DNA from: an uncultured Gammaproteobacteria bacterium
Lineage (GTDB): Bacteria > Patescibacteriota > Microgenomatia > Levybacterales > GWA1-39-11
Direction of reading: 5' to 3'
Assembly (NCBI GenBank): GCA_964537315.1
Contig: CAZIAP010000002.1
Span: 1-41,236 of the forward strand
Length of the DNA stretch: 41,236 nucleotides
Part shown: piece after piece, positions 1-39,043 of the stretch
How the letters are laid out: the number at the start of each line of letters is the position of its first letter
How positions within the stretch are numbered: position 1 is the stretch's first letter
Program-made: the position numbers and the translations under genes
Notes under the pieces: generated by a model
The model's input: only the letters and a program-made list of their open reading frames with translations
Database searches by the model: none
Told to the model about the DNA's origin: nothing

Positions 1-54
1 AACTCACATCAGAGGATCCGCAATCCCCCATTCTATCCGTTGAACTACAGGAGC
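1..54 (-). tRNA. tRNA-Arg(GCG), 3' end cut off by window edge
   Basis: Reverse complement reads GCTCCTG-TA-GTTC-AACGGATA-GAAT-G-GGGGA-TT[GCG]GA-TCCTC-TGAT-GTGAG-TT. D-arm, anticodon arm and start of the T-arm fold normally, and the Arg identity base A20 is present. Confidence 0.85.
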
Positions 55-149
55 ATATTAAGTCACCTTCTCGCTTATACTATTAGACAGTTCAGCGTGA
101 GGTGTATTACTCTGGGTATTGTAACATATTTGAGGGTAAAATAAGCATT

Positions 150-760: not shown

Positions 761-1627
761 TTAGAGTTCCTGGAGGATTGTACTCTCACCTTTTTTATTG
801 TCTTTGATATATTGTAAATATCTCTCTGTCGAAGACAGACGTTTGTGTCCGAGTACTTTTGAAAGAAATATAATTGATACTCCTTGCTTTAAATGGTGTG
901 AAACAAATGTGTGTCTTAGATCATTTATTTTCGCGTTCTCTATACCTGCTTTTCTAAAGTGTCTCTCAACAGCATCACGAATATTTCTAACCAAAAAAGG
1001 CTTACCTGTTTTAGTTACAAATAAATGGTCATCTTCTGTTTTTGTTCTAACTTCTATATATCGTTTTAATGCCTCTTTTGCTCTTTTATTTAAAGGAACC
1101 TCTCTTGCTTCATGTCCTTCGTGTGCGCGAATATATAGCGAGTTGTCTTTTACATCTTCTAAACGCAAATTTGCCAGCTCCCCTATACGGATGCCTGTTT
1201 GCAGTAAAATTTCAATAATCGCATAGATTCTTGGATCAGAAGATGCTGTGTCTCTAAGAGCTCGATATTCCAGCGGACTTAACACCCTAGGAGGATTTAG
1301 CTCATATTTTGGATGCTGAACCATGAGAGATGGATCATCGGTAATATACTCACTAATTTTTAAAAAACGATAAAATGTGCGGGTGGAGTTAAGCTTTCTG
1401 GAAAGTGACTTTGGGGTATACCCTGTATCCTGCAGTTTAGATAAAAATGCTTGGATATCCTGGTCATTGACCTCATGGATATGCTGCTTTTCTAGTTCTT
1501 CCAGAAATGAAACAAGTTGGTCAATGTCTTTTCCATATGCTAATATGGTTGCAGATGCCTTGTTTTTTCCTTTTAGGTAGTCCTGAAACTTACCATGAGC
1601 GTCACGAAGTTTTACATTATTTGCCAT
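761..1627 (-). CDS. XerC/XerD-family tyrosine recombinase
   Basis: SAM-like N-domain (RKLNSTRTFYRFL) plus TGIRIGEL, DLRHTF, LGH and TERY motifs. Start placed at 1627 because a TTGACA-17-TATTAT promoter lies just upstream. Confidence 0.9.
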   Translation of the reverse strand: MANNVKLRDAHGKFQDYLKGKNKASATILAYGKDIDQLVSFLEELEKQHIHEVNDQDIQAFLSKLQDTGYTPKSLSRKLNSTRTFYRFLKISEYITDDPSLMVQHPKYELNPPRVLSPLEYRALRDTASSDPRIYAIIEILLQTGIRIGELANLRLEDVKDNSLYIRAHEGHEAREVPLNKRAKEALKRYIEVRTKTEDDHLFVTKTGKPFLVRNIRDAVERHFRKAGIENAKINDLRHTFVSHHLKQGVSIIFLSKVLGHKRLSSTERYLQYIKDNKKGESTILQEL

Positions 1628-1636
1628 AGACAAACC

Positions 1637-1666
1637 TATAATATCAGCGAGTCCTAAATTTGTCAA
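1637..1666. promoter_or_regulatory. Overlapping divergent sigma70 promoters between xer and divIC
   Basis: Minus strand: TTGACA (1661-1666), 17 bp, TATTAT (1638-1643). Plus strand: TATAAT (1637-1642) with no clear -35. Confidence 0.6.
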
Positions 1667-1667
1667 C

Positions 1668-2009
1668 ATGAAATCTAAAAAAGTAGCAGTTATTATTTTT
1701 GTTCTTATATCAATCTTTGTGCTTCGAAATAGTATCACTTCTATCACTAGTCTTCTCCAGAATGAAGGTGCTGTTCAAGATCTCCAACAAGAGCTTAGCG
1801 AAAAAAAGAAAGAGCATATATTTTTAACTCAGCGACTTTCACAAGTTAAAACTGATGAATTTGTTGAACGAGAAGCCAGAGAAAAACTCGGGATGGTCCA
1901 GGAGAATGAACATCCTGTATTTGTTATCCCTCCATCAGAAAAAAATAACGAAAATAAAGTGGATAAGAAAGAAAACTGGGAAAAGTGGAAAGAAATCTTT
2001 AGATTTTAG
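1668..2009 (+). CDS. divIC: Septum formation initiator, FtsB/DivIC family
   Basis: N-terminal TM helix, coiled coil, and EFVEREAREKLGMV motif. Confidence 0.8.
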   Translation: MKSKKVAVIIFVLISIFVLRNSITSITSLLQNEGAVQDLQQELSEKKKEHIFLTQRLSQVKTDEFVEREAREKLGMVQENEHPVFVIPPSEKNNENKVDKKENWEKWKEIFRF

Positions 2010-2012
2010 ATG

Positions 2013-2082
2013 TTGCGGGGCAAGGAGTTGAACCTTGTCTGCGAGATTATGAGCCTCGCGTGCAGCCGTACACTACCCCGCT
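2013..2082 (-). tRNA. tRNA-Met(CAT), initiator-like; CCA not encoded
   Basis: AGCGGGG/CCCCGCA-A acceptor stem with a 1:72 mismatch; CGAGG-CT[CAT]AA-TCTCG anticodon arm; CAAGG-TTCAACT-CCTTG T-arm. TTGACA-17-GATAAT promoter at 2126..2098. Confidence 0.9.
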
Positions 2083-2183
2083 TCAATAGCTCATAGAATT
2101 ATCGCAGTTTAGCCTTGTTTTGTCAAACAAGAACCTAACCTGCTTGTTTTTTTATTTACAATACTGTAAAATTCATCATTAAT

Positions 2184-2879
2184 ATGGCTCAACACGAAAA
2201 ACTATCTGTCCAGGCACGAACCGTATTTGGAAAGCAACTAAAAAAACTTCGAAAAGACGGTATCCTCCCGGGTAACGTGTATGGTAAAAACTTTACCTCC
2301 ACAGCAGTACAAGTTCCATTTTCAGATTTTCAAAAAGTATATAGTAAAGTTGGAAATACTGGTCTTGTAGATTTAGAAGTTGATGGCAAAACTCATCCTG
2401 TACTGATTCACAACACCGCAATAAACACCATGACCCACGATCCTATACACGCAGATTTCTTTATCGTTAATTTGAAAGAAAAGATCACTGCTAATGTACC
2501 AATTGTGGCAGATGGCGAACCAAGCGCAGTAGCCGAAAAGAAAGGGATATTATTACAATTACTTAATGATGCAGAAATTGAGGCACTTCCGTCTGACCTT
2601 CCAGAATCTTTAAACGTTGATGTAACAGGACTATCCGAAGTTGATGACCAAATTACAGTTGAGCAGATTAAAGCACCTACAGGCGTAACCATTTTAAATG
2701 AGCCAAGCCAAGGAGTATTTCGTATTGGAGAACTTGTAACTCAAGAGGCTATCGAACAAGAAGCCCAGGAAGAAGCCGCTGCAGCTGCCGCTAGTGAAGA
2801 AGCATCAGACGAAGATAAAGCAGCAGAAAAATCAGACGGAGATACTTCAGAAACAAAAGAAGAAAAACCTCAGGAATAA
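2184..2879 (+). CDS. rplY: 50S ribosomal protein L25/Ctc (long form)
   Basis: KKLRKDGILPGNVYGK, HADFF and LPSDLPESL motifs; acidic tail. Confidence 0.95.
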   Translation: MAQHEKLSVQARTVFGKQLKKLRKDGILPGNVYGKNFTSTAVQVPFSDFQKVYSKVGNTGLVDLEVDGKTHPVLIHNTAINTMTHDPIHADFFIVNLKEKITANVPIVADGEPSAVAEKKGILLQLLNDAEIEALPSDLPESLNVDVTGLSEVDDQITVEQIKAPTGVTILNEPSQGVFRIGELVTQEAIEQEAQEEAAAAAASEEASDEDKAAEKSDGDTSETKEEKPQE

Positions 2880-3376: not shown

Positions 3377-3409
3377 TGTATGAAAGTATAGGTTGCTCAT
3401 TGTTTAACA

Positions 3410-3590
3410 GGCGTGTAGTCCCGACGTTACGTCGGGAAACGAGGAGAAGGGTCCGAAGTAACATCGGACAATCGGACGTCCGAAGTAACATCGGACAGTA
3501 TTTGCGGAAACCTTCAGGGTGTAGTACCATCCTAAAATATTCTGACAAAGCAAAATCGCAAGGTTTTGAATAAAACAGTATATGCGTACT
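3410..3590 (+). ncRNA. glmS ribozyme/riboswitch, variant with two hairpin insertions
   Basis: Upstream of glmS. P1 3419-3437; ACGAGG 3439-3444; P2 GAAGG/CCTTC; ATCG 3471-3474; GCGG 3504-3507; P3 AGGGTG/CATCCT; P3.1 AGTAC/GTACT(3586-3590); GACAAAG; P4.1 CAAAATC-GCAA-GGTTTTG with a GNRA loop. Confidence 0.85.
3451..3497 (+). repeat. Two identical palindromic 20-mers GTCCGAAGTAACATCGGACA (3451-3470 and 3478-3497)
   Basis: Exact direct repeat with a 27-bp period; each copy folds as GTCCGA-7-TCGGAC. Confidence 0.95.
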
Positions 3591-3734
3591 CTCCTATACT
3601 TCTTAAGTTTTTATTCGTTGAGCATTATAGTTTAAGACGTTCTAAGGGTTTAGAACAGGCGGCGAACGTGACTACTCACGAATCGTGGATCTTTACTGTA
3701 ACCGTTTAACTTATATTTACCAATTAAATCTAAT

Positions 3735-5492
3735 ATGTGCGGAATATTCGGTTATTTAGGTGATCAAACCAATGCGGGAAACTTAGTCCTTGATGGGCTA
3801 AAATCACTGGAATACAGGGGTTACGACTCTTGGGGAGTTGTAGTAAAGCAGCAAAACCGAAAACTACACATTGAGAAACATGTAGGCAAAATTGGTGATG
3901 CTACTCTTCCTTTACTTAAATCTTCTTCAGGAATTGGCCATACTCGATGGGCAACTCACGGCGGAGTTACAGAATCGAATTCTCATCCTCATCTGGACTG
4001 CAACCGTGAAATCATTATTGTTCACAATGGAATCATAGAAAATTATGCGGAACTAAAACAGAAACTACAGAGTAAGCATAGATATCTTTCAGAAACAGAC
4101 TCTGAAGTCTTTGCACACTTAGTCGAAGAAAAAATTATCAATGGAATGGATCTTCCACAAGCTGTTCTGGATACATTTACCCAAACTAAGGGATTGAGCG
4201 CAATTATTGTCTACCAGCCGAATACTGATAAATTTGTTGCTATCAAGAATGGGTCTCCACTTGTTTTCGGTACAAAAGATCAAGAGTTTTTCCTTGCGTC
4301 TGATAGTGCGGCATTAACTCCACATACCAACAAAGTCCACTTTCTTGAGGATAATGAACTACTTACTATATCTCGAAGTGGTTACCAGGTATATGACTTA
4401 AAACTCAACCCCAAAACTATTTCATTCATCACCTTGGAGTACTCATCTACTGATATAAACCTCGGTAAATACCCGCATTTCATGATGAAAGAAATACACG
4501 AACAGCCGTTTATTCTACGTAAGATAGTCCAAGAGCAGGAATCTAATATACAAAAGGCAGCTACTGTCATACAAAAGGCATATGGTACTTATTTCCTAGG
4601 CTGTGGGACAGCATACTATGCCGGACTTGCTGGAACATATCTATTCTCTAAAATTGCTAAAAAACATGTGAACGCCAGTGTGGGGTCAGAATTCACCTAC
4701 CACAAGGATTTTTTGCAAGACAAAAGCCTTGTTGTAGCACTCTCACAAAGTGGAGAGACCATTGATATCATCTCAAGCATTAAAGATGCAAAAGAAAAAA
4801 AAGCCAAGATTATGGCGATAACCAATGTACTTGGTTCTACACTATACCGTATGGCAGACCACAGACTGCTTCTCACAGCAGGTCCTGAAAAAGGTGTCCT
4901 TGCAACTAAATCCTTTACCGCTAAGATCGCATACCTTTATCTGTTAGCACATGTACTAAACAAGAGCATTAAAACAGGTAAAACTAATATTCTAAAAGTT
5001 GCAGACGAGATAGAAAGACTGCTGACTAAAAAAGATTCTATTCATACACTCGCAAAGAAAGTTAAAAGTAGTCCACATATATTCATCTTAGGAAGAGGCA
5101 TGTCCTACCCCACTGCGCTTGAATCAGCATTAAAAATAAAAGAGGTGTCCTATATCCATGCAGAAGGATTCGCAGCTGGAGAATTGAAGCATGGTGTGAT
5201 TGCGCTTATTGAAAAAGGCACACCTGTAATAGTCTTTAATCCAGAAGATGAAACATACGAAGACACACTCAATGCTGCACATGAGGTAAAAGCACGAGGA
5301 GCGAATATTATCGGTATCTCGAGCAAAAAACACGAGGTATACGATACGTTTATTCCCATAAGCAATTGCGGAGATGCAACAATAATACCGCACGTTGTGG
5401 TAGCACAACTCCTGGGGTATTACCTAGCGATAGAGCTTGGTAATGATCCTGATAAGCCAAGAAATCTGGCAAAGAGTGTAACTGTAAAGTAG
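3735..5492 (+). CDS. glmS: Glutamine-fructose-6-phosphate aminotransferase
   Basis: MCGIFG N-terminal catalytic Cys; LEYRGYDS, GHTRWATHG, SQSGET and DKPRNLAKSVTV motifs. Confidence 0.98.
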   Translation: MCGIFGYLGDQTNAGNLVLDGLKSLEYRGYDSWGVVVKQQNRKLHIEKHVGKIGDATLPLLKSSSGIGHTRWATHGGVTESNSHPHLDCNREIIIVHNGIIENYAELKQKLQSKHRYLSETDSEVFAHLVEEKIINGMDLPQAVLDTFTQTKGLSAIIVYQPNTDKFVAIKNGSPLVFGTKDQEFFLASDSAALTPHTNKVHFLEDNELLTISRSGYQVYDLKLNPKTISFITLEYSSTDINLGKYPHFMMKEIHEQPFILRKIVQEQESNIQKAATVIQKAYGTYFLGCGTAYYAGLAGTYLFSKIAKKHVNASVGSEFTYHKDFLQDKSLVVALSQSGETIDIISSIKDAKEKKAKIMAITNVLGSTLYRMADHRLLLTAGPEKGVLATKSFTAKIAYLYLLAHVLNKSIKTGKTNILKVADEIERLLTKKDSIHTLAKKVKSSPHIFILGRGMSYPTALESALKIKEVSYIHAEGFAAGELKHGVIALIEKGTPVIVFNPEDETYEDTLNAAHEVKARGANIIGISSKKHEVYDTFIPISNCGDATIIPHVVVAQLLGYYLAIELGNDPDKPRNLAKSVTVK

Positions 5493-37177: not shown

Positions 37178-37480
37178 TCCGCGATAGCTCAATGGTAGAG
37201 CAGGTCGCTGTAGCACTTTTTTTGCAGCCTTCCGAAGCAATTCGGAAAGGAAAAATGGGGTGAATTCAGGGAAGTCCTGAAATGGATAATCCTGAGCCGA
37301 GCTTGATGAATGGTATCAAAGTAATCAAGAAGGTGCAGAGACTAGAAGTGAGGAACCAATCCAATAAGCTTCATTAGCGCCCCACATCCTAAATTAGGAT
37401 GATGAGATAGTCCACGCTTTCTGGTAACAGGGAGATAAAGTGTAACGACAAGGTTCTAGGTTCGAATCCTAGTCGCGGAG
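37178..37480 (+). tRNA. tRNA-Asn(GTT) split by a group I intron; exons 37178-37211 and 37443-37480
   Basis: Joined exons give TCCGCGA/TCGCGGA-G acceptor stem, GGTCG-CT[GTT]AA-CGACA anticodon arm and a GGTTCGAATCC T-arm. Confidence 0.92.
37212..37442 (+). ncRNA. Group I self-splicing intron (IC3-like), 231 nt, no homing endonuclease
   Basis: IGS GCAGC (37224-37228) pairs with exon GCTGT with a U.G at the splice site. P3 GGGGTG/CGCCCC; P4 TTCAGG/CCTGAG; R GTGCAGAGACTAG; S GAGATAGTCC; P7 GACTA/TAGTC; terminal G at 37442. Confidence 0.92.
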
Positions 37481-39043
37481 CCCATTAGTCGTTAATATAC
37501 CCAATTTGGCCTTGTTTAGAACATCTATAACTGGCTGATATTGGGTATCAACGACTTTTTTGTTTTCTATTAGGATTTTCTTGAAAAAGAAGCTCAAATA
37601 GGCACGTTTAGCATTGGTATTTGCTTCTTTATAGGTTGTGATAATGTCCTTCGTTAGTGAAATCACTTCCTCTACAATTTTGACATCAATTGTGCGTATT
37701 TTGTTCAATTCTGTAAGTTCTTTTTGAATATCTAGCAAATCGGATTCTATTTTGGAATTTATCGCCATATATCTATCTCGCTTTATAGATCCTGCTAGCA
37801 ACTCTTCCTCTAATCGCTCCTGCTTTATTTCTAGGGCGTCTCTGCGGTTGTAAGCGGCCTTTTTAGCTAGTTTGCTTCTGGTAGTGGTATCTTCATATAC
37901 TTTCTGCACATTTCTCTTAACTGCGTCTATAAACTCCTGACTAAATTCTAGCTTTTCAACTTCTTTTTCAATTTTCTTCTCTAGTGTTTCAATTTCTACA
38001 TATTTGGACTTACATTTGCCAACTCTACCCACACCTGCACAATGGTAGTAGCCAATTCTGCCACCTCTATGCTTAAACTTCTTTTCGTTTACATGCCATT
38101 CTGCTGTATACCTACGGCCACACATATTACAAAAAATTACACCACGTAAAAGGAAGTTGTGTGTGCGTCGTCTAGTTCCATATTCACCACGTCTTGAAAG
38201 GTAATATTGGACTTGTTCAAACGTTTTTTTATCGATTAGTGGCTCATGTTTTCCCATTCCCTCCATACCTCCATATCTCATCCATCCCCAATAAAATGGG
38301 TTTTTAAGTATGTTATGCATCAAAGAATAGGCTATCGGCCTACCTGTTTTTCCTCTAACACCATTGCTGTGTAAATATTCTCTGATTGAATAAATGGTGT
38401 GTTGTTGTGTGGCATACATTTTGAATGCTTGCGTTATAAAAGGGGCTGTCTGTGGATCGGGTACGATTATTCTTCTGTCATATGATCCAATCGGATTTTT
38501 ATTGGCTACGTTCATGTATCCTACTATGGCTACTGATGGATAATATCCTGCTTTGAACTTTTCTGCTGCTGTTTGCTTTACCTTATAGCTGGTTAGTCGT
38601 GGCTGTATGCTATGAACAACCGCAATCATCTCATCCATCACATCAGATAGTGGATTGTCATCAATATTAACAGCACCAGTTAGAGGAACAATAGACGTGT
38701 TGTGTTTTTTGAGGGTTTGCTTAATAAACAAATATTCGTAGGTGTTTCTAGCAACCCTAGAACTGTCCTGCACAACCACATAATCAATATCACCTTTGGT
38801 ACATCTGGCTAGTATTGCTTGAAACGCTATTCGCTTATCTAATGAAGTTCCACTAATCCCACCATCAACAAATATATCTTCTGCTAGCTCACCGCCTAGT
38901 TCTTCAACCTTGGATAGTATTTTCGTTTTTTGAACATCTAGACTTAGGCCGTTATCACGCTGGTTTGCAGTACTGACACGTACATAGCCGAGGCATTTGG
39001 AGATTTTGTTATTCTGTCGTACATCGTCAATTTTCATTTTCAT
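37469..39043 (-). CDS. Large serine recombinase (resolvase + recombinase + Zn-ribbon + coiled coil)
   Basis: YVRVST catalytic Ser motif, DSSRVAR, LKNPFYWG, HEPLI, CNMCG and YYHC..C motifs. Confidence 0.95.
   Translation of the reverse strand: MKMKIDDVRQNNKISKCLGYVRVSTANQRDNGLSLDVQKTKILSKVEELGGELAEDIFVDGGISGTSLDKRIAFQAILARCTKGDIDYVVVQDSSRVARNTYEYLFIKQTLKKHNTSIVPLTGAVNIDDNPLSDVMDEMIAVVHSIQPRLTSYKVKQTAAEKFKAGYYPSVAIVGYMNVANKNPIGSYDRRIIVPDPQTAPFITQAFKMYATQQHTIYSIREYLHSNGVRGKTGRPIAYSLMHNILKNPFYWGWMRYGGMEGMGKHEPLIDKKTFEQVQYYLSRRGEYGTRRRTHNFLLRGVIFCNMCGRRYTAEWHVNEKKFKHRGGRIGYYHCAGVGRVGKCKSKYVEIETLEKKIEKEVEKLEFSQEFIDAVKRNVQKVYEDTTTRSKLAKKAAYNRRDALEIKQERLEEELLAGSIKRDRYMAINSKIESDLLDIQKELTELNKIRTIDVKIVEEVISLTKDIITTYKEANTNAKRAYLSFFFKKILIENKKVVDTQYQPVIDVLNKAKLGILTTNGLRD

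Follow-up and report, generated by a model that had tools for sequence, protein, structure and literature searches.

A compact initiator tRNA with an A-U, G-C, G.U anticodon stem in a Levybacteria genome and its distribution in the class Microgenomatia

The window analyzed here, a stretch of 41,236 nucleotides, carries on its minus strand (2013-2082) a tRNA-Met(CAU) gene that is very probably the single, vertically inherited initiator tRNA-fMet of its genome. The three diagnostic anticodon-stem pairs of the canonical initiator (three G:C pairs, 3GC) are replaced by A-U, G-C and G.U (au/GC/gu). The gene is real and of ordinary function, and represents a lineage-wide variant: au/GC/gu is an inherited state at the level of the class, neither specific to this genome nor a general outcome of small genomes. 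The assembly is a MAG of 1.10 Mb in 14 contigs, scored 100% complete, from Levybacteria, which we take to belong to the class Microgenomatia of Patescibacteria.

The gene and its compact body

The following features were located in the window:

2013..2082, minus strand: initiator tRNA-Met(CAU) gene, 70 nt, A73, CCA not encoded
2054..2056, minus strand: A29-G30-G31, 5' side of the three diagnostic pairs (parsed cloverleaf)
2044..2046, minus strand: U39-C40-U41, 3' side, giving G31.U39, G30-C40 and A29-U41 (parsed cloverleaf)
2049..2051, minus strand: CAU anticodon (ARAGORN)
2041..2059, minus strand: anticodon arm plus Watson-Crick G26-C44, a 6-bp stem with three unpaired variable-loop bases (fold)
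2060..2073, minus strand: D arm with U11-A24 and a 6-nt loop keeping G18-G19 (parsed cloverleaf)
2082..2082, minus strand: A1, mismatched to A72 at 2014 (parsed cloverleaf, contigs of sequencing runs)
2098..2126, minus strand: sigma-70-like promoter, TTGACA, 17 nt and GATAAT with TG (11/12 consensus matches)
1668..2009, plus strand: FtsL-like ORF, convergent, ending 3 nt from the tRNA 3' end (weak TIGR02209 match)
2184..2879, plus strand: rplY (bL25), divergent neighbour
761..1747, minus strand: XerC/D-like tyrosine recombinase

With ARAGORN, a minus-strand tRNA-Met(CAT) was placed at 2014-2081; the match to Rfam RF00005 covers 2082-2013 and scored 44.4 bits against a cut-off of 29. Every feature listed for the gene in an earlier sequence-only reading was confirmed. 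The parsed cloverleaf has the fMet-like acceptor stem described there, with an A1:A72 mismatch, G2-C71, C3-G70 and A73, as well as A-U, G-C and G.U at 29-41, 30-40 and 31-39, U11-A24 instead of A11-U24, and a D-loop of 6 nt. The variable region was found to be 4 nt long. The statement that the tRNA lacks the three G:C pairs holds for the full set of three, but the middle pair G30-C40 and G31 are retained. No alternative letter for position 1 (2082) was found in the Logan contigs of four runs of one bioreactor study, one of which may be the source of the assembly, and A1 was also present in two other genomes of the same family.

The predicted fold is a cloverleaf of -28.9 kcal/mol (z = -3.17), equalled by none of 200 shuffles, in which G26-C44 forms a sixth anticodon-stem pair. 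A compact build, combining an anticodon stem of 6 bp with a short D-loop and a short variable loop, is known from tRNA-Pyl and mammalian mt-tRNA-Ser(UCN). The extended anticodon stem, about three unpaired variable-loop bases and a small D-loop are held in common with these tRNAs as a structural analogy only; the Microgenomatia initiator differs in keeping linker bases 8 and 9, G18-G19 and the TUC T-loop, and the functions are unrelated.

Among 65 distinct compact initiators, which are related sequences and not independent events, G18 was found together with U55 in 46 and A18 or C18 together with G55 in 19, with no mixed combination, and position 26:44 was G-C in 41, A-U in 22, G.U in one and A.C in one. 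This pattern indicates that the compact body is under structural selection; given the relatedness of the sequences, no weight is placed on the Fisher P value for the 18/55 covariation. For the 71 initiators with a GTG D-stem, likewise related, U11-A24 and A72 were invariant (71/71), and base 1 was C in 37, U in 29 and A in five. A Watson-Crick U1-A72 is therefore present in 29/71 distinct compact initiators, with fmt retained. In E. coli a pair of the U1-A72 type is expected to permit EF-Tu binding and Pth attack, and A11-U24, the orientation of which is reversed here, is a minor Fmt determinant. Loss of formylation was ruled out as the cause of the drift at base 1, since fmt-like matches were found in 47 of 48 related genomes irrespective of the presence of C, U or A. 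The tRNA-Tyr of the present genome (C3:93975-94060) likewise combines A18 and G55 instead of G18 and U55.

The promoter-like site was identified by consensus match only, and shuffling this region is expected to produce 0.7 such sites; its 3' limit is 15 nt upstream of the tRNA. In the loci of 28 relatives, the FtsL-like ORF adjoins the tRNA in 11, rplY lies near the initiator in 13 and the XerC/D-like recombinase in 16. Elsewhere in the window, a glmS ribozyme (3399-3593, plus strand) with a 43-nt insertion containing a short direct repeat was found upstream of glmS (3735-5492). The apparently sole tRNA-Asn(GUU) of the genome (37177-37484, plus strand) has its sequence interrupted by a group I intron (37202-37434, 100.4 bits with Rfam Intron_gpI), and the ORF of a large serine recombinase (37469-39043, minus strand) ends inside the 3' end of this tRNA.

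Distribution in Microgenomatia and beyond

A survey of Patescibacteria tRNA-fMet, as suggested by the sequence-only reading, found au/GC/gu to be near-universal in the class and G31.U39 to be rare outside it. All readable copies of the family and the order carried au/GC/gu, intron-split ones included. The class sample consisted of 141 genomes, 79 with an unsplit match and 62 without a match, some of which probably have intron-split genes. Among the matches listed, au/GC/gu was found in 76 of the 79 genomes with a readable copy, GC/GC/gu in one and au/GC/GC in two, and 3GC was seen only once in the 141 genomes, in an additional gene copy that genome G188 carries on a different contig. Two single-contig genomes (G029 and G033) and a complete Woesebacteria chromosome carry the compact au/GC/gu type. 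In at least seven relatives the initiator is split by group I intron-like inserts of approximately 170-200 nt in the anticodon loop.

Outside the class, the initiators among the matches listed for a phylum sample of 221 genomes were 3GC, au/GC/GC or ua/GC/GC. A targeted search of the phylum sample identified G31.U39 in 12 of 208 other Patescibacteria genomes, distributed over five families, and nine of the 12 were au/GC/gu. Among the matches listed for this sample, 3GC persists in Patescibacteria with genomes just as small. Because G31.U39 is this infrequent elsewhere and genomes of equal size keep 3GC, genome reduction alone does not explain au/GC/gu. An origin independent of the mycoplasmas is a reasonable inference, since the initiators of other Patescibacteria are 3GC, au/GC/GC or ua/GC/GC. 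Of the convergence in a reduced-genome lineage proposed from the sequence alone, the independent origin therefore seems reasonable, but the link to genome reduction as such is not supported.

In an exact scan across GTDB, records with the motif came from Levy-, Gottesman-, Woese-, Shapiro- and Curtissbacteria as well as from other CPR labels, and au/GC/gu was also found in Mycoplasma, Ureaplasma, Malacoplasma, Rickettsiales and Deianiraea. The tRNA of the Microgenomatia type also occurs in many records with the label Gammaproteobacteria. The PKR tail of ribosomal protein uS9 described below was present in the three of them that were tested; these records are therefore probably mislabelled.

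Mycoplasmas and certain alpha-proteobacteria are already known to possess au/GC/gu initiators (Samhita et al., 2012, as cited in PMC5389676), and such tRNAs were tested by Shetty et al. (2017, PMC5389676). The present gene has the three-pair state defining that type, and is the only initiator-type gene found in a MAG that encodes formylation and initiation machinery. A29-U41, G30-C40, G31.U39, the 1:72 mismatch, G2-C71, C3-G70 and A73 are all shared. However, the mycoplasma and alpha-proteobacterial tRNAs have a standard body (A11-U24, a D-loop of 7-10 nt, G26.A44 and a 5-nt variable region), whereas the Microgenomatia type has U11-A24, a D-loop of 5-6 nt, Watson-Crick 26-44 and a variable region of 4 nt; its base 1 is C, U or A, and CCA is mostly not encoded. 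Compared to the canonical tRNA-fMet of E. coli (metZWV/metY), the gene shares CAU, the unpaired 1:72, G2-C71, C3-G70, A73, G30-C40 and G31, and its genome encodes Fmt, Def, an IF2-like GTPase and IF3; it differs by the absence of 3GC and A11-U24, by its 70 nt without CCA and by A1 replacing C1.

Many elongator CAU tRNAs of Patescibacteria have G30-C40 and almost never G31. G30-C40 alone is therefore not a phylum-wide discriminator, and G30 plus G31 would be the shared mark of initiators here, with the reservation that the search patterns partly selected for G30/G31. Many of the elongator-type CAU tRNAs combine G29-C41 and G30-C40 with an A31 mismatch, and thus have more G-C pairs than the initiator of the same genome.

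uS9, IF3, 16S rRNA and initiation fidelity

The C-terminus of uS9 in the present genome is QSPKR, with a proline where the mycoplasma TKR has a threonine. All 15 class genomes examined had the PKR tail compared to 0 of 15 other Patescibacteria, and the mycoplasma records were TKR. Since the non-mycoplasma genomes with au/GC/gu outside the class have an ordinary SKR, PKR is not required for au/GC/gu. For the same reason, and because the class genomes have one shared ancestry, co-evolution of PKR with au/GC/gu is not demonstrated.

IF3, the gene of which has a probable UUG start, was examined for changes in this genome, and none was found at R25, Q33, R66, Y75, D106, K110 or in RFRGRE (129-134, including R131). 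In the class as a whole, 8 of 24 genomes have a non-basic residue at IF3 position 131 (P or Y in two of the 24), compared to 3 of 35 genomes of other Patescibacteria. The corresponding proportions retaining E134 are 38% in the class and 97% outside it. V or M at position 131 is also found in 3GC-bearing Patescibacteria. In 16S rRNA, G1338/A1339 were intact in four relatives, and the anti-SD was intact both in relatives and in the 16S 3' end of this genome. Neither RsmD nor RsmB was found above the cut-off. Positions 966/967 of 16S rRNA vary phylum-wide, 3GC genomes included; A966, present in the class, was rejected as a compensating change, as it also occurs in 3GC-bearing Patescibacteria and is not specific.

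The sequence-only reading had interpreted the altered stem as a relaxation of initiation fidelity. This would entail weaker proofreading by IF3 and the P site and more starts at non-AUG codons or with elongator tRNAs, converging on the mycoplasmas, which combine such tRNAs with IF3 R131P/F/Y and uS9 TKR (as cited in PMC11775629). The proline at the same uS9 position, the more variable IF3 positions 131 and 134, the failure to find RsmD and RsmB above the cut-off, and the poorer growth on minimal medium of E. coli dependent on au/GC/gu (PMC5389676) agree with such a reading. However, the IF3 motifs and the anti-SD of this genome are intact, as are G1338/A1339 in relatives, the residues at IF3 131 and 16S 966 also occur together with 3GC, genomes of the same size keep 3GC, and the class genomes counted are kin rather than independent cases. 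Furthermore, the au variant of rhizobia serves rhizobial ribosomes no less well than the wild type serves those of E. coli (PMC5389676), which suggests accommodation more than laxity. Relaxed fidelity is thus not supported by these observations, and we consider it rather doubtful.

As for accommodation, the ribosome-side changes found in the class, the uS9 PKR tail and the more variable IF3 131/134, are indirect and can be taken as hints of an adjustment with a single origin. Compared to the mycoplasma initiation system, uS9 is PKR and not TKR here, and IF3 R131 is kept in this genome. It is conceivable, and we put it forward tentatively, that Microgenomatia rebuilt the checkpoint as a unit, consisting of a compact G30-G31 initiator (even with U1-A72), a PKR uS9 and an eroding IF3 RFRGRE, which would be a second solution independent of that of the mycoplasmas.

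We found no paper on the initiator tRNA in Patescibacteria, CPR or Microgenomates in an incomplete literature search, and none on the compact body (26-44, 18/55), U1-A72 or the class-wide PKR tail; such a search does not prove novelty. The main text of a paper on the CPR ribosome (PMC9297842) contains neither 'uS9' nor 'initiator'.

Identity of the gene and proposed mechanism

Only two CAU tRNA genes were found in the assembly. The other one (C7:23324-23399) has G1-C72 and a GC/CG/AC anticodon stem, which is the elongator pattern. Elongator tRNA-Met has a paired G1-C72 or G1.U72 and a standard D arm, and the A1:A72 of the present gene does not fit this. A motif scan of the assembly revealed no other initiator, 3GC or intron-split, so the finding that would speak against initiator identity, a 3GC tRNA-fMet elsewhere with this gene being an elongator or Ile2, was not encountered in the assembly. 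Window positions 1-55 match the final 55 nt of contig C7 exactly (tRNA-Arg(GCG)); C7 probably joins C2, and the elongator tRNA-Met would then belong to a tRNA cluster together with the initiator, at a distance of approximately 3.3 kb from it.

tRNA-Ile(UAU) (C2:101974-102047, outside the window) and tRNA-Ile(GAU) are both encoded in the genome. TilS was not found in this genome, and was above the cut-off in 0 of 61 class genomes. AUA is common (6073/247,437 codons in long frames) and is probably read directly by tRNA-Ile(UAU). With this tRNA present and TilS missing, an Ile2(CAU) is therefore neither needed nor supported. Def, IF3, an IF2-like GTPase, Pth and an enzyme of the CCA-adding family are encoded, as is Fmt (284 aa, with Fmt proteins as best PDB hits; fmt on contig C3, 1153-2007 of the extracted locus). 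A weak alignment suggests that about 30 residues are missing from the C-terminal tRNA-binding domain of Fmt, and this shortening is possibly related to the altered D-stem. The identification as initiator is based on elimination (two CAU tRNAs, no TilS, tRNA-Ile(UAU), Fmt/Def/IF3) together with the acceptor stem, and on these grounds the tRNA is predicted to be charged, formylated and used in the P site.

Of the 16S gene, this MAG contains no more than the 3' end, and a tRNA gene could likewise have escaped assembly. Six small contigs (C9-C14) with 57-70% G+C, compared to 37-40% elsewhere, are probable bin contamination, and a weak tRNA-like sequence of 28.4 bits, below the cut-off, just downstream of tRNA-Lys(UUU) (C1:200040-200116, minus strand) is probably a degenerate tRNA. 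That the gene at 2013-2082 is itself a degenerate, non-functional copy, with the true 3GC initiator lost from the assembly, would agree with its Rfam score, the lowest among the 43 tRNAs above the gathering cut-off, and with the tendency of MAGs to miss RNA genes. However, its odd features are kept across family, order and class with compensatory changes, the only 3GC copy in the class sample is the second copy of G188, and the gene lies in conserved synteny with a promoter-like site, which makes degeneracy very improbable. A lysidine-modified tRNA-Ile2 decoding AUA would fit a CAU anticodon without 3GC and the frequency of AUA, but is largely refuted, and hardly credible, given the lack of TilS, the dedicated tRNA-Ile(UAU), the unpaired 1:72 and the fact that a genome encoding Fmt and Def would be left without an initiator.

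For the initiator, the known requirements suggest how the tRNA would operate. A 1:72 mismatch with the 2:71 and 3:70 pairs drives formylation, which in turn directs the tRNA to the 30S subunit. Passage to the 70S is then licensed by the 3GC pairs, as recognized by 16S G1338/A1339, and G30 is the essential base of the three pairs (PMC5389676). The au/GC/gu stem, natural in mycoplasmas and alpha-proteobacteria, sustains E. coli without metZWV and metY (PMC5389676). Judged by its sequence, the present initiator retains exactly these minimal elements (the 1:72 mismatch, 2:71, 3:70 and G30). MetRS would charge it via the CAU anticodon and A73, and Fmt would formylate it, as it retains G2-C71 and C3-G70 and its 1:72 is never G-C (A72 fixed, base 1 drifting between C, U and A). 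By means of fMet and IF2 it would then reach the 30S P site, where the ribosome/IF3 checkpoint may read the retained G30-C40, with G31 fixed, via 16S G1338/A1339. The flanking pairs would have relaxed to A-U and G.U once, early in the class, and then become fixed. The shortened D-loop and variable loop may keep the L-shape through the compensated 18/55 and 26/44 contacts, and the class-wide PKR tail of uS9 is a candidate ribosomal accommodation analogous to the mycoplasma TKR.

Automatic annotation may mislabel genes of this kind as Ile2, Met or degenerate. The Microgenomatia tRNAs provide natural initiator variants for mapping determinants of Fmt, IF2, IF3 and the P site, and a change of uS9 from SKR to PKR is predicted to improve the use of this tRNA. 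Altogether, the departure from the 3GC rule known from mycoplasmas and alpha-proteobacteria is shown here to include almost an entire class of uncultured bacteria, and small genome size alone is not its cause.
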